Shown here: in pieces, positions 20,505 to 48,404 of the stretch
Layout: each line of letters opens with the position of its first letter
Numbering within the stretch: position 1 is the stretch's first letter
Source: Leptolyngbyaceae cyanobacterium
GTDB lineage: Bacteria; Cyanobacteriota; Cyanobacteriia; Phormidesmidales; Phormidesmidaceae
Direction of reading: 5' to 3'
Assembly: GCA_965263355.1 (NCBI GenBank)
Contig: CBDHHL010000056.1
Coordinates: forward strand, 960,001-1,024,000
DNA length: 64,000 bases
Program-made: the position numbers and the translations under genes
The notes under the pieces: model-generated
What the model was told of the DNA's origin: nothing
The model's database searches: none
Seen by the model: only the letters and a program-made list of their open reading frames with translations

Positions 20505-21362
20505 TCATTCTTGATAGCGGTTGTACAAAGTTTGAATTTGTGAATATATCTTTTCTCTTACACTCTCTGGACCAATCACTTCACAGTCTCCGCCATAGGG
20601 GAGTACTTCTCGTATAAACCAAAAGGTACTGGTAATTTGTCGGATCACCTGGCGTACCTGGGGTTTATCGGGTAACCATTCCACTGAGATATCTCTGCTT
20701 TTTTTACTTCGGTAGGCAAAGGCAAGACCTTTGTATAAGTGCATTTCCACCTTGAGGGTATCTAAATCATCGCGCCAGGGGCCTTTAATGGCGCTGATAG
20801 CGGCATCGGTAATGCGATCTAGTCGTAGGGTGCGGTTATGAATGAGTTCAGGGACATCTTGGGAGCCTTCGGTTTCTTCGCACCAGCAGTCGAGATACTG
20901 CCGTTCGTCTCTGGGGACGATACGGGCATGGCGGATGGTGAAGTGCCAGATGATGTCTCGGGCGTCTTGATAGGAGAGTTGAAACGGCTGCTGACGATTT
21001 ATGTAACGTTCGATATCGATGCGCCAGGGATGTACGTGACTGGTTACGAATTGTTCTAGTTCGTTACGCAGGGGTATGGTGAGTTCGCTACGGCTACACA
21101 ATAGCTGTGTAATCGTGATGGCATCTGCGATTTTGCCTGCATCGACCAGGGTCAGGCGGGCTTGGTTGAGGGCTTCGATGCGTTCCGAGGACCAGTCATG
21201 GTTAGGGGCAATTTTAAGGTCTTTGCGGGCGATGGCTTCGACGAGTTTGGAGATGTTAGGGCGCTCCCCCCAGGTCATGTTGTATTCGAGCGCGAGTGCT
21301 TCGAGCAGCGCTTTGTCGCGTTCTGAAATAGAAAGGGTAACAGATTGGCCTCGACGTCCCAT
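20505..21362 (-). CDS. CRISPR-associated WYL-domain regulator (Sll7009-like)
   Basis: RHH-like N-terminus, QYLDCWC..NRTLRLDRI WYL core and WCX tail; divergent from the cas genes. Confidence 0.88.
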   Translation of the reverse strand: MGRRGQSVTLSISERDKALLEALALEYNMTWGERPNISKLVEAIARKDLKIAPNHDWSSERIEALNQARLTLVDAGKIADAITITQLLCSRSELTIPLRNELEQFVTSHVHPWRIDIERYINRQQPFQLSYQDARDIIWHFTIRHARIVPRDERQYLDCWCEETEGSQDVPELIHNRTLRLDRITDAAISAIKGPWRDDLDTLKVEMHLYKGLAFAYRSKKSRDISVEWLPDKPQVRQVIRQITSTFWFIREVLPYGGDCEVIGPESVREKIYSQIQTLYNRYQE

Positions 21363-22551: not shown

Positions 22552-24729
22552 ATGTATAGCATTACCTTAAAGCCAGTCTATTCATGTCCTGCTCAACAAC
22601 TGCCTGATGGAGTTATTTTGCCTGATGGCTGGGAGTCTTTGGCTTGGCATCAGGTCGAGACCTTTAAAGCACTCAACGATCCTGATGTCGATGTTGTTTT
22701 TAACACAGCAATGACCGGAGATGGTAAGAGTTTAGCTGCCTATCTCAAGGTATTTCAGGAGTATTACTGTGCTCTAGGTCTTTATCCCACCAATGAGTTA
22801 GCCAGAGATCAAGAAAATCAACTGCTGGAGAATATCCAAAAATTTAAGCCATCCCATAGGCCAAGAGTAAATCGTCTGAGTAGTGCTGAGTTAGAGATTT
22901 ATGCAGAAACTGAAGGGTTGACTAAAGCTGGGTCCATAGGAACACTAACAAACCAATCCGAAGTCATCGTCACTAACCCTGATATCCTGCACTACATTTA
23001 CCGGGGTGCCTATGTAATGAAACAGGACACGCCAGATAAGCTATGGAATCGGATTGACCGAAATTTTGACTTATTTATCTTTGATGAGTTTCATATTTTT
23101 GCGGCACCCCAAGTGGCCAGTGTTATCAACACGCTGTTGTTAATTCGATTGACCAATCGGCCTAAAAAGTTTTTATTCTTGTCTGCGACGCCTGATGAAC
23201 AACTTGTGGGACGCCTGAGAACTGCTGGGTTTCGTTGTCAGGTGATTGATCCACAGAAAGAGAACAAATATAATTTTCCAGATAGTGCTGAACAAGCTAT
23301 TGAGTTAAATGGTAAACACTGGCGGCAAATTGCCAGGGCTATAGATCTAAACTTTGTAGCAGTTGAATCGACGTCTAAAGCATCGGAAACCTGGATCAAA
23401 GAGAATTCAGAACAAATTCTGCAGCATTTTCAACAAGGTCCTGGCACTAAGGGGGCAATCATTCTGAACTCTATTGCTTCAGTTAAGCGGCTGGTACCTT
23501 TTCTACAAAACTTGTTTCAGCCCCATGGATTGACTGTTGGTGAAAATACAGGACTTTCAGGTAAAGAAAAACGAGCGCAATCTTTAGAGGCTGATTTGGT
23601 TATTGGTACCAGCACCATTGATGTGGGTGTGGACTTTAAGATTAACTTTTTAATTTTTGAATCAGCCGATGCTGGTAATTTTATTCAGCGATTGGGGCGA
23701 TTGGGCAGACATGATGGCTATGTGAAAGCAGGCAAGGAAATTGCATTCAATGGGTTTACCGCCTATGCCCTGATTCCTCAGTTCTTTGCAGAACGGCTAT
23801 TTACAAAAGGAGACCAGCCACCACTTAAAACGGGTAAGAGTTATGATCGTCAGTCTTTGCACAACATCATCAGAGACAATTATCGAAATATCAACGACTT
23901 TCAGGGTTATTATTCTCGCTGGGGTGCTTATCAGTCCCTGGCATTGGGTAAGAAGTTGGCCGACAAGAAAATTCAAGAACAGTATGCAGGTAGTTTAGCG
24001 GTCTTTCAAGCAACCTGTGAAAAGGTTTTTAATCGTCGCTTTAAGGAATTGTCCGGTCGGGCTAGCAGTTGGCGCAAAGACTGGCAGGCATTATCCGGGA
24101 AGAAAGATGGAAGTAACCCTATTTTTGAAGATGCCTGTAGTTTTCGAGGGGCTAGTCCGCTGCAGTGTGGACTATATGATCTGACTGAAGAAAACCCAGT
24201 GGATCGGTATAAGACCTATTCACTACCGGGCATCCTCAGCAATTTAGAGGTAGAGGTATGGACAAAAGCTGCATTTTTGAGATCCCTCAAAGAAACGGTT
24301 AAAGCGACTGGACAGTCGATACCCAAAGGCAGATTTGAACATTGCCTGATTTTTCTAAAGCTCCGTGCCTACCGTGAAGAACGATTGGATTGGAAGTTTA
24401 CGTATCCAGGTGAACTGACTAAGCAGACTAATCAGGTACAGGTACTGACAGGACTTGAAATCTGGCAACCTGATAACCCATGGGCCAGCAGTGTTAATAA
24501 AAAGCTACGGAATCAAGGAATAGTCTGCTATGGCCTTCATAAACCTGTTCAGGAAGTACGGCATAAGCTGCGACTACCAATGCATTTTCAGCTTTATTCC
24601 ATCAGCGATCACTATAGTTATCACGATCCTAAAGCACCGTATTCAATAGCCTTTGGGCAAAGCGCTTTGATGCTGGATACACTGACTGGCTGGCTCAAGC
24701 ACAAGAGCAGTGAACCACTTATTTTTTAG
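22552..24729 (+). CDS. cas3: Type I-D helicase Cas3'
   Basis: TGDGKS, DEFH, LSAT and QRLGRLGRH; no HD domain; I-D context. Confidence 0.93.
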   Translation: MYSITLKPVYSCPAQQLPDGVILPDGWESLAWHQVETFKALNDPDVDVVFNTAMTGDGKSLAAYLKVFQEYYCALGLYPTNELARDQENQLLENIQKFKPSHRPRVNRLSSAELEIYAETEGLTKAGSIGTLTNQSEVIVTNPDILHYIYRGAYVMKQDTPDKLWNRIDRNFDLFIFDEFHIFAAPQVASVINTLLLIRLTNRPKKFLFLSATPDEQLVGRLRTAGFRCQVIDPQKENKYNFPDSAEQAIELNGKHWRQIARAIDLNFVAVESTSKASETWIKENSEQILQHFQQGPGTKGAIILNSIASVKRLVPFLQNLFQPHGLTVGENTGLSGKEKRAQSLEADLVIGTSTIDVGVDFKINFLIFESADAGNFIQRLGRLGRHDGYVKAGKEIAFNGFTAYALIPQFFAERLFTKGDQPPLKTGKSYDRQSLHNIIRDNYRNINDFQGYYSRWGAYQSLALGKKLADKKIQEQYAGSLAVFQATCEKVFNRRFKELSGRASSWRKDWQALSGKKDGSNPIFEDACSFRGASPLQCGLYDLTEENPVDRYKTYSLPGILSNLEVEVWTKAAFLRSLKETVKATGQSIPKGRFEHCLIFLKLRAYREERLDWKFTYPGELTKQTNQVQVLTGLEIWQPDNPWASSVNKKLRNQGIVCYGLHKPVQEVRHKLRLPMHFQLYSISDHYSYHDPKAPYSIAFGQSALMLDTLTGWLKHKSSEPLIF

Positions 24730-24841
24730 TTTCAGTCCCGGTTTTCGGGATTAGGGATGTCGATAGAAATGAAACAGCTTTCGCCATTAAGTACAGACAG
24801 ACGTGTTTCAGTCCCGATTGTCGGGATTTATATTAACTTCG
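24729..24841 (-). CRISPR. One-spacer mini-array (CreA/CreR-like) with two degenerate repeats
   Basis: Minus-strand repeats ...AAATCCCGACAATCGGGACTGAAAC (24805-24841) and ...TAATCCCGAAAACCGGGACTGAAAC (24729-24765) keep the hairpin and 8-nt handle of the main repeat; ~39-nt spacer at 24766-24804. Confidence 0.9.
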
Positions 24842-24912
24842 ACAAATTGACCTATCGAACTCTATCAACCAATTTCAATCATATATGGTTTAAGCAATCA
24901 AAGATTGAAAAG

Positions 24913-24933
24913 GTAACGTCAGTCTTAACTTAA
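24913..24933 (+). promoter_or_regulatory. PAM (GTA) plus partial protospacer for the mini-array guide
   Basis: GTA-ACGTCAGTCTTAACTTAA versus guide ACGTCTGTCTGTACTTAA: 15/18 matches, mismatches at 6, 11 and 12. Confidence 0.75.
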
Positions 24934-25032
24934 CATATTTAGAAAAAGGTATTGCTATCGGCTATCGATTAAGTTAGCTTCAGATTGTCAGAGGAAGTAA
25001 TTCATTCGTATTAGTTAACTAGGAGTATATCA

Positions 25033-25233
25033 ATGCGACGAATCAAGACGAAAGGAAAAATTGATCTCTTATTAAAGGTACTTTCCGATCACGAATGGCA
25101 TTGGGGAGAAGAGCTTGCTACTAAAGTAGGATGGCGATTTGGTGCAACAGTTAAAACAGCAAGAGACAAAGGATATCAAATTGAAAGTGAGCGTGTTGGT
25201 CTTCAGTGGAGGTATCGACTATTGAGAGATTAG
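25033..25233 (+). CDS. Small winged-HTH protein (BirA N-terminal/HTH_11-like)
   Basis: LL.VLSDHEWHWGEELA...GYQIES..YRL; SD AGGAG upstream. Confidence 0.75.
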   Translation: MRRIKTKGKIDLLLKVLSDHEWHWGEELATKVGWRFGATVKTARDKGYQIESERVGLQWRYRLLRD

Positions 25234-25294
25234 CTAAAACTTAGATTAAAGTAGCTCTTCGCGAATAACTGTTCCATAAGTTGAAGAGCTCCAC

Positions 25295-25431
25295 AAGGAA
25301 GCCTGATTAATAGCTTTCGGCGTTAAGAACAGGCAGACGTAGTCTAAACCCCCTCGCTTTTTGATAGCAGGCTGGTTAAGTCTTAAGAGCTGATGAACTG
25401 ACTCGAATTTGCAAAGTTCTCAGGCTTCCTT
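25295..25431. ncRNA. Candidate structured RNA closed by a 12-bp stem and containing the guide complement
   Basis: AAGGAAGCCTGA (25295-25306) / TCAGGCTTCCTT (25420-25431) perfect inverted repeat with internal hairpins. Confidence 0.45.
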
Positions 25432-25468
25432 TCTTATAGTTTCAGTCGATGAGTACCTCAAGTGAAAC

Positions 25469-25911
25469 ATGTTTATTCAAAGCCTTGAGAATCTGTATTC
25501 CAAAGTGCCAAAGATTTTAGAGCAAGTTCCCTATCTCAAGCTATTAATACTTTTTGGGTCTAGGGCAAAAGGTGACAATACATCCAACAGTGATTGGGAT
25601 TTTGCTTTTCTATGTGATGAAAATGAGCGTTCTCATTATGAACAAGGTGGTTGGGATAACTTCAGGATCAGTAGCTTGTTAGGACAGGTACTTGAACTTC
25701 CTAGTCATGCTATAGACATCGTGGATCTTAACGAGTGTCCTGAACTTTTAGCCCATCAAATAGCTCAGGACGGAAGGTCATCTACGAAAAAGAACCCAGC
25801 GAGTTTGAACGGTTTCGACAAAGCCATCTAAAGAGTCCAGAGCAAATACAGCAAATAGGACAAGACTTAAGTTCAAGCATTCAAGAGCGTCTACGACAGT
25901 GGAGTGCATGA
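25469..25911 (+). pseudogene. mntA: MntA-type adenylyltransferase antitoxin, frameshifted near 25775
   Basis: LFGSRAKG...SDWDFA motif; the expected continuation KVIYEKEPSEFERFRQ...QWSA* is in another frame and its TGA overlaps the hepT ATG. Confidence 0.75.
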
Positions 25912-26348
25912 CAATGAATTTTAACTCTGTTCGTTTCAGACTTAACTTGATTCTGGATTATCTAGAAGAGCTGAGACCGCTTGGAACAGTGACGTTTGAT
26001 GAATTAACTGATGATCGATACAAATATCGTTCTGCTGAACGATTGTTGGAAATCATTATCCAGGCTGCCATTGATATCAACAACCATCTGATATCAGGAC
26101 TGAGCAAACGACGACAGGCATCAAATACCGACAATTTTCTGGAAATGGCTAAATTAAATATCCTGACTCCAGAAATAGCGCAAGATTTATCGGCCTCCAG
26201 CAATTTTCGAAATCGTTTGGCCCATGAATATTACAGCATTGATCCATCCATTGTTTTTCAGTCCATTACTAAAGCTTTAGAACAATATCCACAGTACGTG
26301 CAACAAGTGCTTGAATTTGTAGACAACTTTGAGATGAATGATGAGTAA
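25908..26348 (+). CDS. hepT: HepT-type HEPN RNase toxin (DUF86)
   Basis: AERLLEIIIQAAIDI and intact R-x4-H motif FRNRLAHEY. Confidence 0.88.
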   Translation: MTMNFNSVRFRLNLILDYLEELRPLGTVTFDELTDDRYKYRSAERLLEIIIQAAIDINNHLISGLSKRRQASNTDNFLEMAKLNILTPEIAQDLSASSNFRNRLAHEYYSIDPSIVFQSITKALEQYPQYVQQVLEFVDNFEMNDE

Positions 26349-29300
26349 TAATCTCAACGACGATAATCTTGATTGGTTAGATGACGATATTGGGGATGAA
26401 CAGTCGTCTAACCGAACGATTGAACCCACTCAGCGTGAGCTTCTGACCTTAAAGCTTTTACGCTCCGCGATTCACACACAGAATCCTGATGATGCCGTAA
26501 TGCAGGATTTTGCTGAGTATGTATTACCTAACTTGTTGAAAATTACCATTGGCGTTACGGCTAAGGGAGGTAAGTTTTTTGACAAGTTAGATCAAGAAAA
26601 GGGGAAAGAAAACGTTCGGCGTGATAATGCAGCGGATCAGTCTCTGAATACTCACTTGCTTAATGGTTTATTTCCAGCAAATCTAATCGAACAACGGCTT
26701 GAACAACTGGATACAACGATTCAACGATTAGTGCGAGAGCAAGAGCGTCGTTTGGTCATGGCGGCTTTTATTCTGCATGATTTTGAGAAATTTCCTGATG
26801 TTGATGGTGAGATTAGAAGCTTGCCTGGTGAAGAACGTCTAAAACAACATCGTCAGGTTATCGACAAAAAAATACAACAGCTTGGGCTAGATCACTTTAT
26901 TAATCCCCAAAATCCAACGGCATACCGAGAGTATCTGGATGATCTGTTATGTATGGCTTACAACGCCCAAAGACGTTGGGATACGAATTGGAATTTTTCA
27001 GAATATGGGTTGCAGCCAGTCTTAAAAGACAAAATTTTGCGAAATTTGACTGAGTTAACCTGTTTAGCTGATTCCTTGGCATCCATCATCAAACATCCCC
27101 AAGATGCCACCAGTTATAAGTTCAAAGAACTACTCCATAGCTTGAGTGACGGACAAATCAGCCTTACCTATCATAGCATTTCAGAAAACAGGGGGGTGTT
27201 GACCAACGTAGTCAATAATGCCGTTATGGATGCCCATATTGCGCTCAATACCCCAGATAAAAAGCATTATGAACCGCTACTCTATCTACCAACTGGGGTT
27301 ATTTATCTGGCCTATGGGAAACCACCTCCGGTGGCACTTAATGATTTGCCTGAGCGGGTGATCGCCAAAATCAAACAACTCTGTTTTGAACAGCTAAGAC
27401 GTCGCCAAACTGGTTTTAGTCGGGATGGTAAAGGCATGAAATATGCCGACTACTACACGCTTTTCTGTGACACTCGGCAGTTAATGTACATCGCCTTAGA
27501 TGCCACCCTCAGAATCTTATCTAACAATAAAAAGTCTGTTGGTCCTAGCCGCAGTGCAAAACTCAAAACGTTTCAAGAAAAAGGTGCTCTTTCAGCGGAT
27601 TATGATTTTCAACTGGGGGATGATATTCGGATTGATCAGCTAGCTGAGTTCGGCGATGTGATTTGCCGTAAAGTGTGGGGTGAGCGATGCGATCTCATCC
27701 AAACCCTATACAAAGAAAGAACCAAAAAACGGAAGAAAAACAAAGACTTATCAGAACTTCCGGAGTTAAAGCTATTGCCTGAACAACTGGTTATCAAGCT
27801 GGCTGAGTTTTTAGGTCTATCAGAGTATCTACCGCAACTCCGAGAAATCCAGACTATTAACGCTACTCTAAAAGAGAAAAAAGTCAAAGGCAGTACCGGT
27901 GGCATTCCCTACGAATGGTATTTTATCTCCACTAAACTAATTCAGGGTTCAGGTATCGAAAATATTCGAGAGATTGCCGAGAAAATTATTGACCATGCTG
28001 CAAACTTAATTGAGCCTGTTATCGCCCAATATGAAGTTGCTGATGGCTGGGATGACTTAAGATCTTGGGTAAATCAAGTGGTGATGCTGCCACAGGCCAC
28101 CATAACTAAAACACCCAAAGATCAGACCGATATCTTTCTAAAGGAATTGGCCAGCTATCAGGTGGCCAAAAAAGTTGGACGTGGCAAACTAGCGATTTGC
28201 TCAGTCTCCCATTCTGCCTACTCTGTAAAAGAGCAAATGGAATCAGAGGTATTATTTACTCCCCAGGTGTATACCAATAAACAGCTACTGGGTGGTTCTA
28301 ACGCGAAACGCAATATTTCCAGCATTGCAGGGTTAGAAATGATGCTACGTCAGATTCTAATGAACCAAACTCAAGCAGTGGGCAAACGGTTTGAAGATGG
28401 CAAATATCGTTATCTCTACTTTTACCCTACCTACTACTTCACCCCGGAAACCAGTCGTTTCTTACAAAAAGCTTATACAGGCATTGCCCAAACTCGATTT
28501 AGTACCAATCTACGCAATCACTTTATCTCTAAGGATTTGGTCGTTGATTTTAGTCGTGAGCACTATCAGGCGGTTGATTCATTCTTGATCGATGATGATT
28601 TAGAGCGCAAGACAACCTTACCTGAAGATGATCCAGACTATAAACGCGATCGCACCTTTAAACTCTCTTACCCAGACGATCAGCCATTAACCTTTTTCTT
28701 TATGGCATTGCCACCGGGACGAGACCCCACCGATACCGAATCTTGGGTAATGCCAGCCTGGTTAGCCTTTGCTAGTCCAATGATTCTGGATGTCAAAACC
28801 GTGGTCTCAGAATCTCCTGTCCCCCCATTTAATGATGGTGCGGAGTTTGAAGAAAGTGTCTTTTTGGATAGTGCCCCCCAAGCCTTTAGAGCCCTACTCA
28901 AACAGGATAGGTTCCGGTTAGATTACATCCTTGAAGGTTGGCAAACCCCAGACGGCACCCAGCAAGCTTCTCCCCTTAATGCCTTAACCAGTGCCTATGC
29001 AATTCACCTGGATGTGAATGCCAAACAAGGTAAGGGAGGATATGACGCTAACTGGGGCAAGTTGACAGAGCTAGCCAAAGATTTAGAAACCAGTCCGCTC
29101 TATGTATTCAATTACTTAAATCGTTGGCTTCGTAATCAGAAAAAAGAATCTATACGTATAGAAAAGATCAAACTCTATGCCTACCACTTTTATCCCTGTT
29201 TTGACCCGCATACAAAATTAATCGTACTTGACTTGGAGGAAATGCTTGTGTGTGACGAGAAATCTGCGCTGAGACATCCGCAAAGACTGACCGAATTGTA

Positions 29301-29757
29301 CAGACGGTTTTATCGTGCCGATAAACGATATAACCCCAAAAGCAATGCCGTTTTGAAACCGATCAAGGAAGCCGCTGATGTTATTTTGAATGCGGATACT
29401 GATGGGTTTAGGGGAGAAGACTTAGTCTTTTTAGTTGCTGCTAAGAATACAAAGTTAATGGATCGAATTCATTCGTCAGGTGCGGAAGGCTATCCTGTCT
29501 TTAAACGAAATGAGCGCGACCAAGAACGAGAATCTATCCTAGAATTTGCTCGATATTTTGTCCATGAGGTATTTGAAAAATCCTTTGCTAGTGATCGTGG
29601 TCGGTTAGCAGGCAGACAACTCAATCTTCTGCGTGATGCGTGTGAATTCATCTATCGTCTTGAACAAGACAAAGAAAATAAAAAAGATAAAGATAAAGCA
29701 GACAGTAAGCAAATCAAGAACGACGTTAACTCATCGAACGATAATGGCGAGGATTAA
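26338..29757 (+). CDS. cas10d: Type I-D large subunit Cas10d (Csc3)
   Basis: N-terminal HD domain (DQSLNTHLLNG...LHDFEK), PQVYTNK; 1139 aa. Confidence 0.93.
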   Translation: MMSNNLNDDNLDWLDDDIGDEQSSNRTIEPTQRELLTLKLLRSAIHTQNPDDAVMQDFAEYVLPNLLKITIGVTAKGGKFFDKLDQEKGKENVRRDNAADQSLNTHLLNGLFPANLIEQRLEQLDTTIQRLVREQERRLVMAAFILHDFEKFPDVDGEIRSLPGEERLKQHRQVIDKKIQQLGLDHFINPQNPTAYREYLDDLLCMAYNAQRRWDTNWNFSEYGLQPVLKDKILRNLTELTCLADSLASIIKHPQDATSYKFKELLHSLSDGQISLTYHSISENRGVLTNVVNNAVMDAHIALNTPDKKHYEPLLYLPTGVIYLAYGKPPPVALNDLPERVIAKIKQLCFEQLRRRQTGFSRDGKGMKYADYYTLFCDTRQLMYIALDATLRILSNNKKSVGPSRSAKLKTFQEKGALSADYDFQLGDDIRIDQLAEFGDVICRKVWGERCDLIQTLYKERTKKRKKNKDLSELPELKLLPEQLVIKLAEFLGLSEYLPQLREIQTINATLKEKKVKGSTGGIPYEWYFISTKLIQGSGIENIREIAEKIIDHAANLIEPVIAQYEVADGWDDLRSWVNQVVMLPQATITKTPKDQTDIFLKELASYQVAKKVGRGKLAICSVSHSAYSVKEQMESEVLFTPQVYTNKQLLGGSNAKRNISSIAGLEMMLRQILMNQTQAVGKRFEDGKYRYLYFYPTYYFTPETSRFLQKAYTGIAQTRFSTNLRNHFISKDLVVDFSREHYQAVDSFLIDDDLERKTTLPEDDPDYKRDRTFKLSYPDDQPLTFFFMALPPGRDPTDTESWVMPAWLAFASPMILDVKTVVSESPVPPFNDGAEFEESVFLDSAPQAFRALLKQDRFRLDYILEGWQTPDGTQQASPLNALTSAYAIHLDVNAKQGKGGYDANWGKLTELAKDLETSPLYVFNYLNRWLRNQKKESIRIEKIKLYAYHFYPCFDPHTKLIVLDLEEMLVCDEKSALRHPQRLTELYRRFYRADKRYNPKSNAVLKPIKEAADVILNADTDGFRGEDLVFLVAAKNTKLMDRIHSSGAEGYPVFKRNERDQERESILEFARYFVHEVFEKSFASDRGRLAGRQLNLLRDACEFIYRLEQDKENKKDKDKADSKQIKNDVNSSNDNGED
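29248..29757 (+). CDS. cas11d: Cas11d small subunit from an internal start in cas10d
   Basis: SD GGAGG at 29235-29239 followed by in-frame ATG 29242 / GTG 29248, just before LTELYRRFYRA. Confidence 0.7.
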   Translation: MCDEKSALRHPQRLTELYRRFYRADKRYNPKSNAVLKPIKEAADVILNADTDGFRGEDLVFLVAAKNTKLMDRIHSSGAEGYPVFKRNERDQERESILEFARYFVHEVFEKSFASDRGRLAGRQLNLLRDACEFIYRLEQDKENKKDKDKADSKQIKNDVNSSNDNGED

Positions 29758-29760
29758 ACA

Positions 29761-30369
29761 ATGGTTAAACTATTGCAAGCTGGACAATCCTACACCTTTA
29801 GTAAAATCTTTGACCTCAAAATCCCGGCTGATGAATTGGCCAGTGAGTTTGGGTATACCTTTAGTCGGCAAAAATTAAAGTTAGGACGCTATCAGGGAGA
29901 ACTTGATCGAATTGTGGAATTGCAATCACGCATCGAAGAAATTTTGCCTTATGTTGATCTAGCAAACGAAACATCTCGCCGAGAAATTTTAATTTCTCGA
30001 ATTGTCTCAGAGGTAGTTCACTATACTAAAGCCCAATTGCGCATTGAGTATCCCATCAAAGTTACGGAACAATTGCAAGGGTACCTTGATTATTTATTGC
30101 GGACTCAAACAGAACTCATTGTGATTGAGGCTAAGCGCCAGGATTTAGACTATGGATTTACCCAACTGGTTGCTGAAATGATTGCCCTTGATCAATGGGA
30201 GCGTACACCCACTCAATCGTCGTTGCTAGGTGCAATCACAACAGGGTCGGTATGGCAATTTGGCGTCTTATATCGAGAGAATAAGCATATCGAAAAGGGC
30301 TTAGATAGCTACCGTGTCCCTGAAGATATAGATGACTTGATGCGGATATTAGTAGCTGCATTACCTTAA
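29761..30369 (+). CDS. Cyanobacterial PD-(D/E)XK restriction-endonuclease-like protein
   Basis: GYLDYLL...VIEAK..DL..GFTQL and GAITTG..WQFG. Confidence 0.7.
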   Translation: MVKLLQAGQSYTFSKIFDLKIPADELASEFGYTFSRQKLKLGRYQGELDRIVELQSRIEEILPYVDLANETSRREILISRIVSEVVHYTKAQLRIEYPIKVTEQLQGYLDYLLRTQTELIVIEAKRQDLDYGFTQLVAEMIALDQWERTPTQSSLLGAITTGSVWQFGVLYRENKHIEKGLDSYRVPEDIDDLMRILVAALP

Positions 30370-33862: not shown

Positions 33863-33978
33863 GTTTTGGGTTTTAGATTTTAGATACACTACCCACCACC
33901 TATCACCCACCACTTATCACCCACCACCTATCACCCACCACCTATCACCCACCACCTATCACCCACCACCTATCACCC
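33841..33978 (+). repeat. Heptamer-based tandem repeats (GGTATTR/GGTTTTR run, then ~6x CACCCACCACCTAT)
   Basis: Directly visible between cas4 and cas1. Confidence 0.9.
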
Positions 33979-34956
33979 ATGTCTTCGCTCTATATTACTC
34001 AACCCGATGCTGTTGTCAGCAAAAAATATGAGGCGTTTAATGTTGCCCTAAAACAAGAAGATGGTTCCTGGAAACGACAGTCTATTCCTGCTCAAACTGT
34101 GGAACAAGTGATTCTAATGGGTAACCCTCAAGTCACTGGAGATGCTTTAATGTATGCGTTAGAGCTGGGAATGCCAGTTCATTATCTATCCAGCTTTGGC
34201 AAATATTTAGGTGCTGCTCTACCAGGCCACTCACGTAATGGTCAACTACGGCTTGCTCAGTATGCAATGTATCGCGACATTGAACAACGGTTAATCCTGG
34301 TAAAAGCAATGATCACTGCCAAAATTCATAACCAGTATGCGGTGCTTTATCGCCATGGTCAAAAGGATAATCCATTAAAGCAACATAAACGTATGGTGGC
34401 ACAGCAAAAAACTTTGGATCAAGTACGTGGCATCGAAGGGCTAGCGGCACGAGAGTATTTTGCTAGTTGGATCCAAATGTTAGATAAGTCTTGGCAGTTT
34501 ACAGGACGTAATCGTAGACCGCCTACGGATCCGGTCAATGCATTGCTGAGTTTTGCCTATGCTTTGTTGCGAAGTCAGGTGACAGCAGCAGTCCATATTG
34601 CGGGGCTTGATCCGTATATTGGGTATCTCCATGAAGTTCATCATGGACAGCCTGCTATGGTTTTAGATTTGATGGAAGAATTTCGGCCTTTGGTAGCTGA
34701 TAATTTAGTTCTGGCGGCCATTAACAATCGTTCAATTCAGCAGAAGGATTTTACTGAGAGTTTAGGAGCCTATCGTTTATCAGATAATGCTCGAAAGGCT
34801 TTTCTACAAGCTTTTGATCGCAAAATGAATGATGAGTTTAAACATCCTGTTTTTGACTATCGGTGTAGTTATCGACGAGCAATTATTTTACAGGCACGGT
34901 TGCTGGCAAAGTATCTGCAAGAGGGAATCGAGTATAAGGGGCTAATGCTACGGTAA
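33979..34956 (+). CDS. cas1: Cas1 (type I-D)
   Basis: RGIEGLAAREYF, NRRPPTDPVNALLSFAY and DLMEEFRP. Confidence 0.96.
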   Translation: MSSLYITQPDAVVSKKYEAFNVALKQEDGSWKRQSIPAQTVEQVILMGNPQVTGDALMYALELGMPVHYLSSFGKYLGAALPGHSRNGQLRLAQYAMYRDIEQRLILVKAMITAKIHNQYAVLYRHGQKDNPLKQHKRMVAQQKTLDQVRGIEGLAAREYFASWIQMLDKSWQFTGRNRRPPTDPVNALLSFAYALLRSQVTAAVHIAGLDPYIGYLHEVHHGQPAMVLDLMEEFRPLVADNLVLAAINNRSIQQKDFTESLGAYRLSDNARKAFLQAFDRKMNDEFKHPVFDYRCSYRRAIILQARLLAKYLQEGIEYKGLMLR

Positions 34957-35477: not shown

Positions 35478-38400
35478 CTCGCCAACCAAAAATCCCGACA
35501 ACCGGGACTGAAACTTGAACCATCGAACTATGATGGTAGCACCTTTAGCCTACTCGCCAACCAAAAATCCCGACAACCGGGACTGAAACTAGCCTGAACG
35601 ATAATCGAACTCAGAAAATTGTATTTACTGACTCGCCAACCAAAAATCCCGACAACCGGGACTGAAACAGCTCGTTGACGGGAACCCCCAATTTAACCCC
35701 TCGCCAACCAAAAATCCCGACAACCGGGACTGAAACAAATAGGGCCATCAAAAATCCCGACAACCGGGGATGATTCAGCTCTGCAGTTCATACTCGCCAA
35801 CCAAAAATCCCGACAACCGGGACTGAAACATCGATGAGAAAACTATGTTTGCTTAGAAAACCTGGCTGTAGTCTGCTCGCCAACCAAAAATCCCGACAAC
35901 CGGGACTGAAACGTATCTGAGGCAACACGATACGCTTCAATTAGCTCTGCAAGCTCGCCAACCAAAAATCCCGACAACCGGGACTGAAACCAGGGGACAT
36001 GGTTGGAGCAGTTTAACTTATGTAGCTCGCCAACCAAAAATCCCGACAACCGGGACTGAAACGGAAACTGAGCGTGATCACTTGGCGCACTGAAGCTCGC
36101 CAACCAAAAATCCCGACAACCGGGACTGAAACCAGGATATGGACGGACCCTGAGGATTTAAGACGTCATGGCTCGCCAACCAAAAATCCCGACAACCGGG
36201 ACTGAAACTCTGTCAGCATTACCTATCTTGTTCAGCTGGTTGAACGGCCTCGCCAACCAAAAATCCCGACAACCGGGACTGAAACAGAACGGAGGCCGTA
36301 GGCTCGCCAACCAAAAATCCCGACAACCGGGACTGCTCTTACCACTTCCTCGCCAACCAAAAATCCCGACAACCGGGACTGAAACTCGTCAATGTCTTGG
36401 CCATGCGCGACCTGCCCATGCTCGCCAACCAAAAATCCCGACAACCGGGACTGAAACATGGATTTCAGCGTTAGGAGCAGGCTCGCCAACCAAAAATCCC
36501 GACAACCGGGACTGAAACATGTCTGGCCTTCCTAATTCCTGCTGCTCGCCAACCAAAAATCCCGACAACCGGGACTGAAAACCCGAATGATCAGATAATT
36601 GATCTCTCACAGTGTGACTCGCCAACCAAAAATCCCGACAACCGGGACTGAAACATGCTTTCTGCGTCACGGGTTCTATCTCCCTACTAGCTCGCCAACC
36701 AAAAATCCCGACAACCGGGACTGAAAACTTAAGCTGTAACTTTCCTGGGAGTCAGGAACCCCTCGCCAACCAAAAATCCCGACAACCGGGACTGAAACGC
36801 CACTGTCGCAGCTTTGCCGCACCGTTGGCTTGTTGGCTCGCCAACCAAAAATCCCGACAACCGGGACTGAAACTTTGCCATCACGCAATTCATGATCACC
36901 CAATCCCCTCGCCAACCAAAAATCCCGACAACCGGGACTGAAACGCCAGTTATCAACTCTCCTTCCTCAATGTCAGCATGGCCGCACTCGCCAACCAAAA
37001 ATCCCGACAACCGGGACTGAAACGCATTAGGAGTATCCTTTGAACGGGTTGAATTGCTCTGCTCGCCAACCAAAAATCCCGACAACCGGGACTGAAACAT
37101 TTCCTAACCTGTATGGTTCCGTTCCTGCCCCAACTCGCCAACCAAAAATCCCGACAACCGGGACTGAAACTACGTGGATTCTATGGCTCGCCCTATACCT
37201 GCTAAAAGCTCGCCAACCAAAAATCCCGACAACCGGGACTGAAACATTATTTCTGGGGCTGCCATAGGGACTAACTTCCTCCTCGCCAACCAAAAATCCC
37301 GACAACCGGGACTGAAACTGGTTCTATGAATCGGGCCTGAATTAAAGGCATATTCAAGATACTCGCCAACCAAAAATCCCGACAACCGGGACTGAAACAT
37401 CAGGTTAACTCACTAACCTAGGGTCCGCCACTGCTCGCCAACCAAAAATCCCGACAACCGGGACTGAAACATTACCTGATAATCCGTCATAATAACAGTG
37501 AAACAGCTCCATTCACTCCTCGCCAACCAAAAATCCCGACAACCGGGACTGAAACTATTGGTTCCTTATACGTTAATCGTTGACATGTCGGGGAAGCTCG
37601 CCAACCAAAAATCCCGACAACCGGGACTGAAACATGGTGCATTGCTCCTCAGCAATTGAAGCGTTGCAGACTCGCCAACCAAAAATCCCGACAACCGGGA
37701 CTGAAACCTGATGACTTGGAGATGCATCAGTAGGCAGCTAAATACTCGCCAACCAAAAATCCCGACAACCGGGACTGAAACAGAAACTGAGCTAACAAGC
37801 TACGCTGCAGGTAATCAAAGATGAGCTCGCCAACCAAAAATCCCGACAACCGGGACTGAAACAAACCTCCGCCCATAGAAGCCTTAACAGAATTCCAGAC
37901 CCAAGCTCGCCAACCAAAAATCCCGACAACCGGGACTGAAACGCTCACTGTTTCCGTTCCTGCCTATTCGTGCGAGATCCCAAGCTCGCCAACCAAAAAT
38001 CCCGACAACCGGGACTGAAAACTTTGCCTTGGGGTTGTCGGCGCTGCAACACTCGCCAACCAAAAATCCCGACAACCGGGACTGAAACCGTAGATCTTCC
38101 CCCATGTGCCCCTTGGCTCGCCAACCAAAAATCCCGACAACCGGGACTGAAACCTTCCAAGCAGCTGGCCAATGCAACGGAGCTACCTCGCCAACCAAAA
38201 ATCCCGACAACCGGGACTGAAACTAGCTGCTTCACTGGAAGAAACAGTAAGTTGAAACTCGCCAACCAAAAATCCCGACAACCGGGACTGAAACTGAATC
38301 TTTACCGCAAGAATGGTATCTGTTTTCTCGCCAACCAAAAATCCCGACAACCGGGACTGAAACTCAGGTTGCACTCACTAACCTAGGGTGTAAGCGCCAC

Positions 38401-41400
38401 AGCTCGCCAACCAAAAATCCCGACAACCGGGACTGAAACGGTTAATTCGATGATCTTTTGCTGCCTAGTAATGTTCTTGCTCGCCAACCAAAAATCCCGA
38501 CAACCGGGACTGAAACGATTCACTAGAGTTATGAGTGACCGACCGACTGGTTCCTCGCCAACCAAAAATCCCGACAACCGGGACTGAAACACTGCTTTAA
38601 GTTTTGCGACTCGTTTTAGTCGTGTCAGCTCGCCAACCAAAAATCCCGACAACCGGGACTGAAACGCTTGTTACTTCAACGACGACAACAAGGATCAACT
38701 CGCCAACCAAAAATCCCGACAACCGGGACTGAAACTACAAAGAACTTGGCATTGAGTTTCAGGAGGGTTTCTCGCCAACCAAAAATCCCGACAACCGGGA
38801 CTGAAACTCCTGAGCTGGGCTTTCATTCGAAGAAACCGGGACTCGCCAACCAAAAATCCCGACAACCGGGACTGAAACATTTCTGTCTACTGTCATGTCG
38901 CTAGTGATGTTGTTCTCGCCAACCAAAAATCCCGACAACCGGGACTGAAACATCGGAACAGATCCAAGGACAGAGATACGGCAGCGCTCGCCAACCAAAA
39001 ATCCCGACAACCGGGACTGAAACACCCTCAACAGACCCTCTGCCCAATTATAAAGCAATCACTCGCCAACCAAAAATCCCGACAACCGGGACTGAAACTG
39101 CCATTTGGAGCTTGGATGACAACTTCGACTAGTTCGAGACTCGCCAACCAAAAATCCCGACAACCGGGACTGAAACGTGTCCAGCTGCCATGATGCTTGG
39201 CACCCCGAGCCTCGCCAACCAAAAATCCCGACAACCGGGACTGAAACGACCGGTTGGTTGATGCGTTTGGGGGCGCTTGAACCAGTCCTCGCCAACCAAA
39301 AATCCCGACAACCGGGACTGAAACTGAAGTTGAACCGCCATAAAACGTCTGTAACTAACTCGCCAACCAAAAATCCCGACAACCGGGACTGAAACAAAGT
39401 CCAGCTATTTCCGGCTTGGAGGACGCTAGGCTCGCCAACCAAAAATCCCGACAACCGGGACTGAAACCCAAATCACCTTGCTCTTTTAGAAGACTGTCAG
39501 GATCTCGCCAACCAAAAATCCCGACAACCGGGACTGAAACTGCTCTTTTTTTATCTGGAGTCGCAGCACCCGCTTACTCGCCAACCAAAAATCCCGACAA
39601 CCGGGACTGAAACACACAGCCAAAAGGGACAGAGGGATTCGAACCCCCCGACTCGCCAACCAAAAATCCCGACAACCGGGACTGAAACTTAGGCCACTTG
39701 TTTTTTATCTGCATTGTTTGGCCGATCTCGCCAACCAAAAATCCCGACAACCGGGACTGAAACTAATGCTCCGCAACTGGCCAGCATATATAGGCAGTGC
39801 TCGCCAACCAAAAATCCCGACAACCGGGACTGAAACCTGTCCACATATTCAAAGATGCTCTAAAGATGCTCGTCTCGCCAACCAAAAATCCCGACAACCG
39901 GGACTGAAACGCATCGCAAGGTTGGGCACAGTGTTCTGTGCTGTCTCGCCAACCAAAAATCCCGACAACCGGGACTGAAACTTTAAGCGAGAATTAGTAT
40001 CTTCTACGAACTCCTGCTCGCCAACCAAAAATCCCGACAACCGGGACTGAAACTGATCAATACCGCTCACTTTATCCGCTTTGCTCTCATCTCGCCAACC
40101 AAAAATCCCGACAACCGGGACTGAAACTTCTAACGAAAGAGAGTTTTGCATCAGCTGGGTCTACTCGCCAACCAAAAATCCCGACAACCGGGACTGAAAC
40201 TCGATAGTTTAGCCTAGGTTTGTGTAAAAATCCACAACTCGCCAACCAAAAATCCCGACAACCGGGACTGAAACATAAATTTACCTGAATTATTCGCCAT
40301 AGGAGGCTTGGCTCGCCAACCAAAAATCCCGACAACCGGGACTGAAACGCACATAGACGCAAGGCTTCAAACTGCACCAAACGCCCACTCGCCAACCAAA
40401 AATCCCGACAACCGGGACTGAAACTATTAGAAAATCAATTATTCAACAATACTAGGATTCCTCGCCAACCAAAAATCCCGACAACCGGGACTGAAACCTT
40501 GTGGGAATGGGGCGAAGTTACACCCTCTAACTACTCGCCAACCAAAAATCCCGACAACCGGGACTGAAACCACAGTCTTAGAAGCAGATTAAGGAGAGAA
40601 AAAACTCGCCAACCAAAAATCCCGACAACCGGGACTGAAACTGGGGTAAGCCTGCCGAGAACCTTTGTCAATACCGACTCGCCAACCAAAAATCCCGACA
40701 ACCGGGACTGAAACCATAGCCTGGAATAACCTTGGGCTCCCATCGATGACTCGCCAACCAAAAATCCCGACAACCGGGACTGAAACGACCGTTGGCACGG
40801 TCAGGCGCGAGCGTGGGCAGCGCTCGCCAACCAAAAATCCCGACAACCGGGACTGAAACTCTAAAGCTGAAGGTTCACCACAAGGATAACAATTTCCCTC
40901 GCCAACCAAAAATCCCGACAACCGGGACTGAAACGCGTTCTTGACTCTGCGTCCTGAGGCCCACTTCACTCGCCAACCAAAAATCCCGACAACCGGGACT
41001 GAAACAATTGCTTTTCATGGCCTACATATTCCCCTCAATTGCTCGCCAACCAAAAATCCCGACAACCGGGACTGAAACGCTACTGGGACAGCTGCCGAGT
41101 ACAGGATCAAAGACCTCGCCAACCAAAAATCCCGACAACCGGGACTGAAACGGCGATTGAGCCAAGCCCATCAACAACGTTACTGGCCTCGCCAACCAAA
41201 AATCCCGACAACCGGGACTGAAACTTTTGGCCACGGGTTGAGAACAGATAGAGGTAGAACTCGCCAACCAAAAATCCCGACAACCGGGACTGAAACGAGA
41301 CGAACCAGACGCTAAAGAGCAAGCTGGCCAGCTCGCCAACCAAAAATCCCGACAACCGGGACTGAAACATTGTTAATAAGTATCGGTGAAATTCTGCTGT

Positions 41401-43005
41401 TGCCTCGCCAACCAAAAATCCCGACAACCGGGACTGAAACTTCTGTTTCGCCTGAGTATTTGAACCTATCAATAGCTCGCCAACCAAAAATCCCGACAAC
41501 CGGGACTGAAACCTAAGGGTTAAATTGCCGCGCCTGGTCCCCAGCTGCCGGGGCTCGCCAACCAAAAATCCCGACAACCGGGACTGAAACGAACCTATTG
41601 AGCTAACCGCTACCAACCCTCCCAAAACTCGCCAACCAAAAATCCCGACAACCGGGACTGAAACGATCGACCACAGGCCTCAAAAAAGCCGGACTCGCCA
41701 ACCAAAAATCCCGACAACCGGGACTGAAACCCAATGCATCGCAAGCATCCACCACCGTTAGCTCGCCAACCAAAAATCCCGACAACCGGGACTGAAACAG
41801 AGTGACACCGTACATGTTTAGACTAGCAGTACTCGCCAACCAAAAATCCCGACAACCGGGACTGAAACCTACTACAACAGTTAATGACCAGGAAACCTAA
41901 TGAGGCTCGCCAACCAAAAATCCCGACAACCGGGACTGAAACTGATAAAAGTCAATCTGGTGATTATGGTTGAGGCCTCGCCAACCAAAAATCCCGACAA
42001 CCGGGACTGAAACGCCCATGAAGACCTCAGCATTTGTAATTTTTGTTTGCTCGCCAACCAAAAATCCCGACAACCGGGACTGAAACATTATTAGCTTTGC
42101 TATCGGACTAGGGCCAAAACTCGCCAACCAAAAATCCCGACAACCGGGACTGAAACTTTATTGTAACGGCTGATATTCAGGAACTAAGCTCGCCAACCAA
42201 AAATCCCGACAACCGGGACTGAAACAGACGTATTAGCCGTTGCATTAAAACCTAAGACTCCTCGCCAACCAAAAATCCCGACAACCGGGACTGAAACGTA
42301 GGATTTCTACTAGATAGCAAAACTACAAATCCTCGCCAACCAAAAATCCCGACAACCGGGACTGAAACGTAGCTAACACGATCTAAAAAACTACTTTCTT
42401 CTCCCTCGCCAACCAAAAATCCCGACAACCGGGACTGAAACTCATGCCCTAGTGACATGTTCAGATTTACATACTCGCCAACCAAAAATCCCGACAACCG
42501 GGACTGAAACGTAGCAGTAAGGAAATCGTTGGCTGGATAGCGCTCGCCAACCAAAAATCCCGACAACCGGGACTGAAACCTTATACTCAGTCACAGCAAG
42601 AGTGCTCGCCAACCAAAAATCCCGACAACCGGGACTGAAACTGGTGAGAAACTTAGACCCTGTTTGGTCTACAACAAACTCGCCAACCAAAAATCCCGAC
42701 AACCGGGACTGAAACGTTTTGGACTCTCCAGAGTCGGAGTCAATCAAGGTGCTCGCCAACCAAAAATCCCGACAACCGGGACTGAAACAGCATGGGCCAA
42801 AGCGGAGGACTGAGGATTTGAACCTCGCCAACCAAAAATCCCGACAACCGGGACTGAAACCTTAGGGCCTATTGGCACACCACGAAAGGACATTGCTCGC
42901 CAACCAAAAATCCCGACAACCGGGACTGAAACTCAATAGTGGTTTGAATGCTTTGCTGACCCAGCTATCTCGCCAACTATAAAACCGATCAGCTAATTTA
43001 AATCA
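35478..43005 (+). CRISPR. Type I-D CRISPR array, 37-nt repeat CTCGCCAACCAAAAATCCCGACAACCGGGACTGAAAC
   Basis: About 103 repeats by manual count plus a degenerate terminal copy at 42969; the GAAAC 3' end, leader position and decayed distal repeat give + orientation. Confidence 0.98.
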
Positions 43006-48297: not shown

Positions 48298-48401
48298 ATG
48301 GAAACCCATAATTAACCCAACATTACCAATCACCCATGACCATAATCAAATGGAAACCCATAATTAACCCAACATTACCAATCACCCATGACCATAATCA
48401 A
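48298..48401 (+). repeat. Perfect 52-bp tandem duplication
   Basis: ATGGAAACCCATAATTAACCCAACATTACCAATCACCCATGACCATAATCAA, two copies. Confidence 0.9.
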
Positions 48402-48404
48402 AAC

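Follow-up and report, generated by a model that had tools for sequence, protein, structure and literature searches.

What role could be played by a miniature array with a single guide that lies antisense at the very end of a type I-D helicase gene, inside its own cas locus? This question is raised by a 64,000-nucleotide (nt) stretch of Leptolyngbyaceae cyanobacterium DNA (GenBank assembly GCA_965263355.1, contig CBDHHL010000056.1, positions 960,001 to 1,024,000 of the forward strand), the whole of which is referred to here as the window. It contains a complete cyanobacterial type I-D CRISPR-Cas locus on the plus strand, with Cas10d, Csc2 (Cas7d), Csc1 (Cas5d), Cas3' and Cas6 and a main array. 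An original prediction, made from the letters of this DNA, had proposed that the effector complex Cascade, loaded with a Cas6-processed minus-strand RNA from the mini-array, represses a promoter located between 24842 and 25032 without cleaving it. The comparative data collected here, namely covariation of guide and target, the GTN flank of the target and a promoter-like motif at 24952-24980, support this proposal. We consider it likely that the mini-array guide directs the organism's own Cascade to the neighbouring promoter and would thereby repress both the cargo genes, which lie between the mini-array and cas10d, and the Cascade genes themselves.

The mini-array starts exactly where cas3' (22552-24729, plus strand; NCBIfam TIGR03158 cas3_cyano, E 7e-113, with Pfam DEAD and Cas3-like_C_2 domains) ends, in that the last letter of the cas3' stop codon (24727-24729), a G, also opens the proximal (3') repeat-like unit. 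This unit (24729-24765, minus strand) is followed by a spacer-like guide of 39 nt (24766-24804, read from 24804 down to 24766) and a distal (5') repeat-like unit (24805-24841), which would supply the 8-nt handle ACUGAAAC. When compared over 37 nt with the repeat of the main array, the proximal and distal units are identical at 25 and 27 positions, respectively. The differences are concentrated in the 5' halves, while both units retain the hairpin and the ACTGAAAC end of the main repeat and are predicted to form the hairpin at the same place. A 23-nt repeat-core pattern was recovered without any mismatch at two minus-strand sites, 24729-24751 and 24805-24827; all other matches in the window were the 102 repeats of the main array on the plus strand, and none was obtained in any of 100 shuffles. 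Thus, the two minus-strand repeats beginning at the stop codon, with preserved hairpin and handle and diverged 5' halves, are present as originally described.

The mini-array sits approximately 10.6 kb from the main array (35478-42932, on the strand of the cas genes), whose spacers range from 24 to 63 nt with a mode of 35-36, and the guide length of 39 nt falls within this range. A search of Rfam at a permissive E-value returned only weak CRISPR-DR52 matches on both units and a sub-threshold hammerhead. It is most likely, judged from these sequence features, that the two units and the 39-nt guide constitute a crRNA (CRISPR RNA)-like regulatory gene of the CreR/CreA or 'mini-array' kind, encoded on the minus strand opposite cas3'. 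Its own promoter may lie within 24842-24912 on the minus strand, where -10-like hexamers recognized by eye are candidates. In the predicted fold of the precursor (24729-24841, minus strand), UGAAACA at the end of the handle is base-paired with UGUUUCA, which belongs to the guide's 3' part, and the corresponding GTTTCAT recurs in several related guides.

The candidate DNA target of this guide is found a short distance away on the plus strand (24913-24933), and consists of a GTA protospacer-adjacent motif (PAM) at 24913-24915 on the 5' side of an 18-nt partial target (24916-24933). The guide matches this target at 15 of 18 positions, with mismatches at positions 6, 11 and 12 and no match beyond position 18, which reproduces the match that had first been noticed. 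When the first 18 nt of the guide were compared with both strands of the entire window, one better site was found (25340, minus strand, 16/18), and the next best reached 14/18. As this is the only site in the window that outscores the PAM-flanked target, the match is well beyond what chance would give.

To examine this relationship in other organisms, Cas3' homologues were aligned and 80 cyanobacterial type I-D loci were collected for comparison. Five of them (L035, L039, L049, L053 and L072) were dropped before all counts, owing to a cas3' match that was cut or a contig end at or within a few bases of the end of the match, which left 75 relatives plus the window (76 loci). A two-unit antisense mini-array within a few bases of the cas3' stop was identified in 45 loci, and at least the distal unit could be recognized by pattern in a further 22; four loci showed only the proximal unit and five showed none. 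In 67 of the 76 loci, a guide is found 45-135 nt past the end of cas3', and the position and orientation of the mini-array are kept in these loci across cyanobacterial orders. Its presence across most loci indicates that the mini-array is a regular part of these type I-D loci. The core of the guide is conserved across genera, with variable positions at 6, 12, 18, 24 and 30.

The guide classes are co-inherited with the first gene that follows the mini-array, which encodes a winged-helix protein, a protein of 63-67 amino acids (aa) that has two QLEL-type repeats and belongs to no family, or a coiled-coil protein with a DUF433 protein after it. Culturable relatives such as Anabaena sp. 90 (pANA02) and a Nostoc strain also have the module. 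Plasmid pSYSA of Synechocystis PCC 6803 (L081, 3518-3532), the bench model of type I-D systems, has neither mini-array nor cargo in the 13-nt gap between cas3' and cas10d, and the accessible text of a preprint on Cas6 of Anabaena 7120 does not mention such a unit.

The original prediction had suggested covariation of spacer and target in related loci as a check, and this check turned out in its favour. For the guide of each locus, the 300 nt downstream were searched on both strands for the best match of 16 nt. Among 63 unique pairs of guide and best hit, 49 were GT-flanked with at least 11 of 16 matches, and 45 of these 49 sites were on the plus strand. Among the 49 pairs, 16 distinct 5-nt seeds are represented, and with so many different seeds, chance or simple inheritance is an unlikely explanation. 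In a shuffled-seed control based on 42 unique pairs, the GT flank was present in 53 of 840 cases versus 31 of 42 observed, and a score of at least 13 was reached in 2 of 840 versus 28 of 42. The window fits this picture, in that its seed departs from the consensus of its class at positions 2, 3 and 5 in guide and target alike.

The distribution of matches along the 49 PAM-flanked sites further specifies how such pairing might occur. Positions 1-5 were matched in 49, 49, 49, 44 and 47 pairs and position 6 in 13; positions 7-11 in 41, 49, 49, 39 and 37 and position 12 in 15; positions 13-17 in 39, 44, 40, 31 and 19 and position 18 in 10, after which the values were at background. Thus, matching to the PAM-flanked site in relatives stops near positions 17-19, similar to the window. 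For type I-D systems, a GTN or GTH PAM has been reported and every sixth base of the guide is flipped out (PMC10212523), and binding of double-stranded DNA (dsDNA) is PAM-specific (PMC9123187). Since every sixth base of a Cas7-bound guide is flipped out, dips at positions 6, 12 and 18 would be expected, and these are the dips observed; the two properties on which the original prediction had relied, the GTN PAM and the unpaired sixth positions, are in agreement with this literature as far as its accessible text goes.

A predicted sigma-70-like promoter follows the target at 24952-24980 on the plus strand, with a -35 box TTGCTA (24952-24957), a 17-nt spacer and a -10 box TAGCTT (24975-24980). 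It corresponds to the motif TTGnnA-N17-TAKnnT, which was taken from an alignment of class-A loci between the target and the small open reading frame (ORF) and is located 3' of the target in 23 of 24 class-A loci; the spacing is 17 nt without exception, and the motif starts at guide position 23-39. For class B, an extended -10 motif TGnTAnnnT was found inside the footprint in 8 of 13 loci.

The promoter at 24952-24980 is predicted to serve the genes that follow it on the plus strand, namely a small gene of 66 aa (25033-25233), the cargo genes mntA (25469-25831; type VII antitoxin nucleotidyltransferase, NCBIfam NF047752, E 2e-20) and hepT (25899-26348; type VII toxin RNase, NCBIfam NF047751, E 9e-28), and probably cas10d (26338-29757; large subunit of type I-D Cascade, NCBIfam TIGR03174, E 5e-280). 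Because hepT overlaps the start of cas10d by 11 nt, the cargo genes and cas10d probably form one unit. The product of the small ORF has no Pfam or NCBIfam family. Its AlphaFold2 model, based on 19 homologues, has a mean pLDDT (predicted local distance difference test) of 85 and contains three helices and a wing, and every leading Foldseek match was a winged-helix regulator (best match NolR, E 0.017, template modelling (TM) score 0.73). The earlier label of this gene as a winged helix-turn-helix gene is thus borne out at the level of the fold.

Several further observations concern this promoter region. Many relatives (L014, L041, L047, L050, L056 and others) contain two GT-flanked seed sites at about +158 to +197 after cas3', either as a tandem with a distance of 26 nt or on opposite strands in a back-to-back arrangement. 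In relatives with two sites, the upstream one overlaps a minus-strand -35-like box recognized by eye, which may belong to the mini-array's own promoter. Furthermore, CTATCG occurs repeatedly in the window, both around the mini-array and within the promoter spacer (24760-24766 on the minus strand, 24853-24859, 24955-24961 and 24962-24968). GCTATCG in the promoter spacer is kept across class-A loci and could be an operator recognized by the small winged-helix protein.

Based on these data, the following mechanism could be proposed. Cas6 would cut both hairpins to release an RNA with the 5' handle, the guide and a 3' hairpin, and this RNA would be taken up by type I-D Cascade. The GTA at 24913-24915 would be recognized by Cas10d, and pairing of the guide with 24916-24933 would be limited to positions 1-5, 7-10 and 13-18; since pairing stops at position 18, Cascade would be expected to bind without recruiting Cas3'. 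It would then sit directly upstream of the promoter at 24952-24980, with its 39-nt footprint reaching the -35 box, and this promoter would drive the winged-helix gene, a leader, mntA-hepT and probably the genes from cas10d onwards. In this way, the cargo genes and Cascade itself would be repressed in a Cascade-dependent manner.

Some observations weigh against this interpretation and should be considered together. The GTA flank of the window is rare among relatives (2 of 49 pairs; the third PAM base was T in 28, C in 19 and A in 2). A scan of 24300-25500 for consensus promoters and terminators called no site, the proposed -10 box TAGCTT is weak, and guide position 37, on the outer edge of the 39-nt footprint, is where the -35 box begins, compared with positions 23-27 in many relatives. 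A second PAM-flanked site was sought in the window and is absent, though many relatives have one. In addition, cas10d is located 1.35 kb downstream of the promoter motif on the same strand, a distance that a transcript would have to span, and the related loci share ancestry, so that the counts given above are not independent events.

The PAM-flanked site is not the only sequence related to the guide. A full-length copy, which had been missed in the original prediction, is located at 25309-25340 on the minus strand, with its complement on the sense (plus) strand; it matches the guide at 27 of 32 positions and is flanked by ACT instead of a PAM. A copy on the same strand that agrees with the locus's own guide at 20 or more of 32 positions was found in 44 of the 67 loci examined (4 of 150 for shuffled guides), and the flank was GTN in none of 35 unique pairs. 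In these 35 pairs, positions 1-3 were matched in 17, 15 and 15 cases, positions 4 and 5 in 32 and 31 and position 6 in 10; positions 7-11 in 30, 16, 28, 29 and 35 and position 12 in 8; positions 13-17 in 29, 34, 33, 33 and 35 and position 18 in 9; positions 19-23 in 27, 29, 20, 31 and 35 and position 24 in 7; and positions 25-29 in 35, 29, 33, 35 and 35 and position 30 in 4. When class A (16 pairs), class B (7 pairs) and the rest (7 pairs) are taken one by one, each shows the dips at every sixth position, and in a permutation test, five randomly drawn positions did as well in only 2 of 200000 sets.

The conservation of the guide itself across loci has the same six-base periodicity out to position 30. 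As the PAM-flanked site matches only to about positions 17-19, it cannot explain this conservation, and a full-length partner appears to be needed. The pattern suggests Cascade-type pairing, without which a six-base period to position 30 in three independent guide classes would be hard to explain. Among the mismatches of the second copies, 77 keep a G-U pair between guide and sense strand, compared with 35 reverse transitions and 155 transversions; in the window, three of the five mismatches are G-U-compatible. In class B, about 2 nt separate the extended -10 motif from the second copy downstream of it, so the predicted transcript would start with guide-complementary sequence. In the cargo-poor locus L069, the second copy (+594) lies just upstream of cas10d (+720).

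In class-A loci, the second copy follows the small ORF and lies inside an element of about 150 nt. The leader-like element of the window (25295-25431, plus strand, about 137 nt) is closed by a perfect 12-bp stem formed by 25295-25306 with 25420-25431, and a closing stem of 9-13 bp was found in 11 of 18 class-A loci, its 3' arm lying about 30-65 nt upstream of the next gene. In the window and in locus L045, the arms have different sequences, with complementarity kept. In the plus-strand consensus structure, 244 of 255 cells are paired (95.7%), and 8 cells are changed on both sides compared with 2.6 in shuffles. The mirror of this structure on the minus strand has 220 of 255 cells paired, a comparison that is biased toward the plus strand because the structure was predicted on that strand. 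Closing-stem duplex energies did not distinguish the strands, and RNAalifold gave no covariation-supported fold for the minus strand of the second copy.

It is known that Cascade of type I-D binds complementary single-stranded RNA (ssRNA) at about 11 nM irrespective of the flank (PMC9123187). In a second layer of the proposed mechanism, the same guide would bind the sense transcript in the structured leader upstream of the cargo genes and cas10d. We give close to an even chance, or slightly below, to the possibility of additional pairing, about 30 nt in length, between the guide and the sense strand at 25309-25340, with this site most plausibly engaged as RNA; sense-strand DNA that becomes exposed is a less likely partner than the sense transcript. 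On the other side, the second copy is missing from 23 of 67 loci, its positions 1-3 are mismatched in about half of the pairs, and we infer both the strand and the kind of molecule (RNA, single-stranded DNA or dsDNA) that would be engaged at this site.

Other explanations of these sequences have to be weighed against autoregulation through the promoter and pairing at the second site. One is that the guide mainly silences the cargo as a safeguard similar to CreTA, so that loss of Cascade would free the small first gene and the HepT cassette and harm or arrest the cell. The cargo between mini-array and cas10d is indeed variable and rich in toxin-antitoxin genes, as also noted by Shmakov et al. 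(2023; PMC10120712), and different guide classes accompany different first genes. However, cargo-poor loci such as L069 have the module directly upstream of cas10d, toxicity would not be obvious when mntA and hepT are derepressed together, and no small RNA toxin resembling CreT is evident. Such a safeguard and autoregulation are not mutually exclusive, and as the main role of the guide we regard it as rather less likely than not. Much less credit can be given to the view that the mini-array is a functionless remnant of a decayed array and that its 15/18 match arose by chance. The diverged 5' halves of both units would agree with decay, but a position and orientation held in 67 of 76 loci across cyanobacterial orders and a covariation over 16 different seeds would not, and chance is ruled out by the shuffle controls; this view is hardly credible.

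The motif of 16-30 nt that is shared by the guide, the PAM-flanked site and the PAM-less copy might also serve as an operator to which a protein binds, for example the small winged-helix protein, rather than as a site of RNA-guided pairing. The copies flank the winged-helix gene, GCTATCG is conserved within the promoter spacer and the motif class is co-inherited with the first gene. An operator would not predict a loss of constraint at exactly every sixth base, as is observed, or a GT flank on only one of the copies; it would also leave unexplained why one copy is placed between two Cas6-type hairpins, and the pattern is found in loci with other first genes as well. We consider this explanation very improbable. 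It is somewhat easier to imagine, although still unlikely, that the copy at 25309-25340 is no target at all and represents either a relic of a duplicated mini-array whose similarity was maintained by gene conversion, or a second guide gene. Its flanks look like the 3' end of a repeat and a degenerate repeat hairpin. In addition, the lack of a covariation-supported fold on the minus strand would suit such an origin. Neither gene conversion nor a mere relic would predict divergence exactly at positions 6, 12, 18, 24 and 30 with matched positions in between, the upstream hairpin that Cas6 cutting requires is absent, and a guide conserved to position 30 would still need a full-length partner, which the PAM-flanked site, matching only to about 17-19, does not provide.

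How do these elements relate to systems that have already been described? In CreTA (CRISPR-regulated toxin-antitoxin RNA pairs), a neighbouring promoter is repressed by Cascade, which a crRNA-like antitoxin RNA directs there by means of a partial, PAM-flanked match, as would be the case in the window. CreT reportedly is a small RNA toxin and none is evident here: downstream of the promoter are the winged-helix ORF, mntA, hepT and cas10d, with no relevant Rfam match, and the cargo is a protein pair, MntA/HepT, which stands together with cas genes.

There is also a likeness to CreR, in which the guide of a degenerate mini-CRISPR sends the effector to its own cas promoter via limited complementarity; according to the accessible text of Liu et al. 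(2023; preprint, 10.1101/2023.03.10.532045), this was shown by experiment for types I-B, I-E and V-A, not for I-D, for which creA-like elements are mentioned with a supplementary figure. Unlike CreR, the first gene predicted to be regulated in the window is the small winged-helix gene, with cargo before cas10d.

Shmakov et al. (2023; PMC10120712) described type I-D mini-arrays between cas3 and cas10d that are transcribed opposite to cas3 and whose partial matches, flanked by a PAM, lie either in the promoter of cas10d or upstream of cargo genes, the cargo between mini-array and cas10d being toxin-antitoxin pairs and regulators. Judging from the accessible text, the window shares with these mini-arrays the position, the orientation opposite cas3, the two repeat-like units, the partial seed match with a cognate PAM in a likely promoter and the toxin-antitoxin/regulator cargo; their type I-D work was computational, and the experiment was on type I-F1. 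The mini-array and its PAM-flanked promoter site are one more case of the kind predicted by Shmakov et al. (2023) and Liu et al. (2023). Since regulation by type I-D mini-arrays was already predicted in print, the novelty of the arrangement had been rated too high at first.

For the second site the situation is different. The main text of Shmakov et al. (2023) makes no mention of an RNA target, a second target or a PAM-less site (its supplementary type I-D sequences were outside our search), and neither the accessible text of Liu et al. (2023) nor a literature search yielded any mention of a PAM-less second site. The in vitro binding of ssRNA by type I-D Cascade (Schwartz et al., 2022; PMC9123187) offers a possible mechanism by which a fully complementary, PAM-less site on the sense strand could be bound; that work used synthetic targets, and its accessible text does not describe a natural RNA that a type I Cascade would target.

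The remaining parts of the locus include genes for a WYL regulator (20505-21362, minus strand) and a DUF1016/YhcG nuclease, as well as csc2, csc1, cas6, cas4, cas1 and cas2. A 202-aa ORF between cas10d and csc2 (29761-30369, plus strand) had a weak Cas4-like match (TIGR00372, E 0.001, far below the cut-off). Two tandem repeats were observed, namely a 14-nt unit, ACCCACCACCTATC, in 6.4 copies between cas4 and cas1 (33891-33979) and a perfect tandem duplication of a 52-nt unit at 48298-48402. Three of the 102 main-array repeats (36559-36581, 36705-36727 and 37999-38021) end with A, not C. At the end of mntA (25822-25880, plus strand), a type I hammerhead match of 17.6 bits remained below the gathering score of 34 (E 0.78) and is probably due to chance.

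Taken together, the comparative data strongly support the published prediction of mini-array regulation in type I-D systems, by virtue of the 16 seeds, the GTN flank and the free positions 6, 12 and 18. The PAM-less, six-base-periodic site would explain the conservation of the whole 30-nt guide across cyanobacterial orders, and not of the seed alone, and it is a candidate for a natural role of the RNA binding that type I-D Cascade displays in vitro. If this proves true, no earlier example of a type I Cascade with a natural RNA target would precede the second site, which would add a post-transcriptional arm, through control of translation, termination or titration, to the autoregulation of cas genes.

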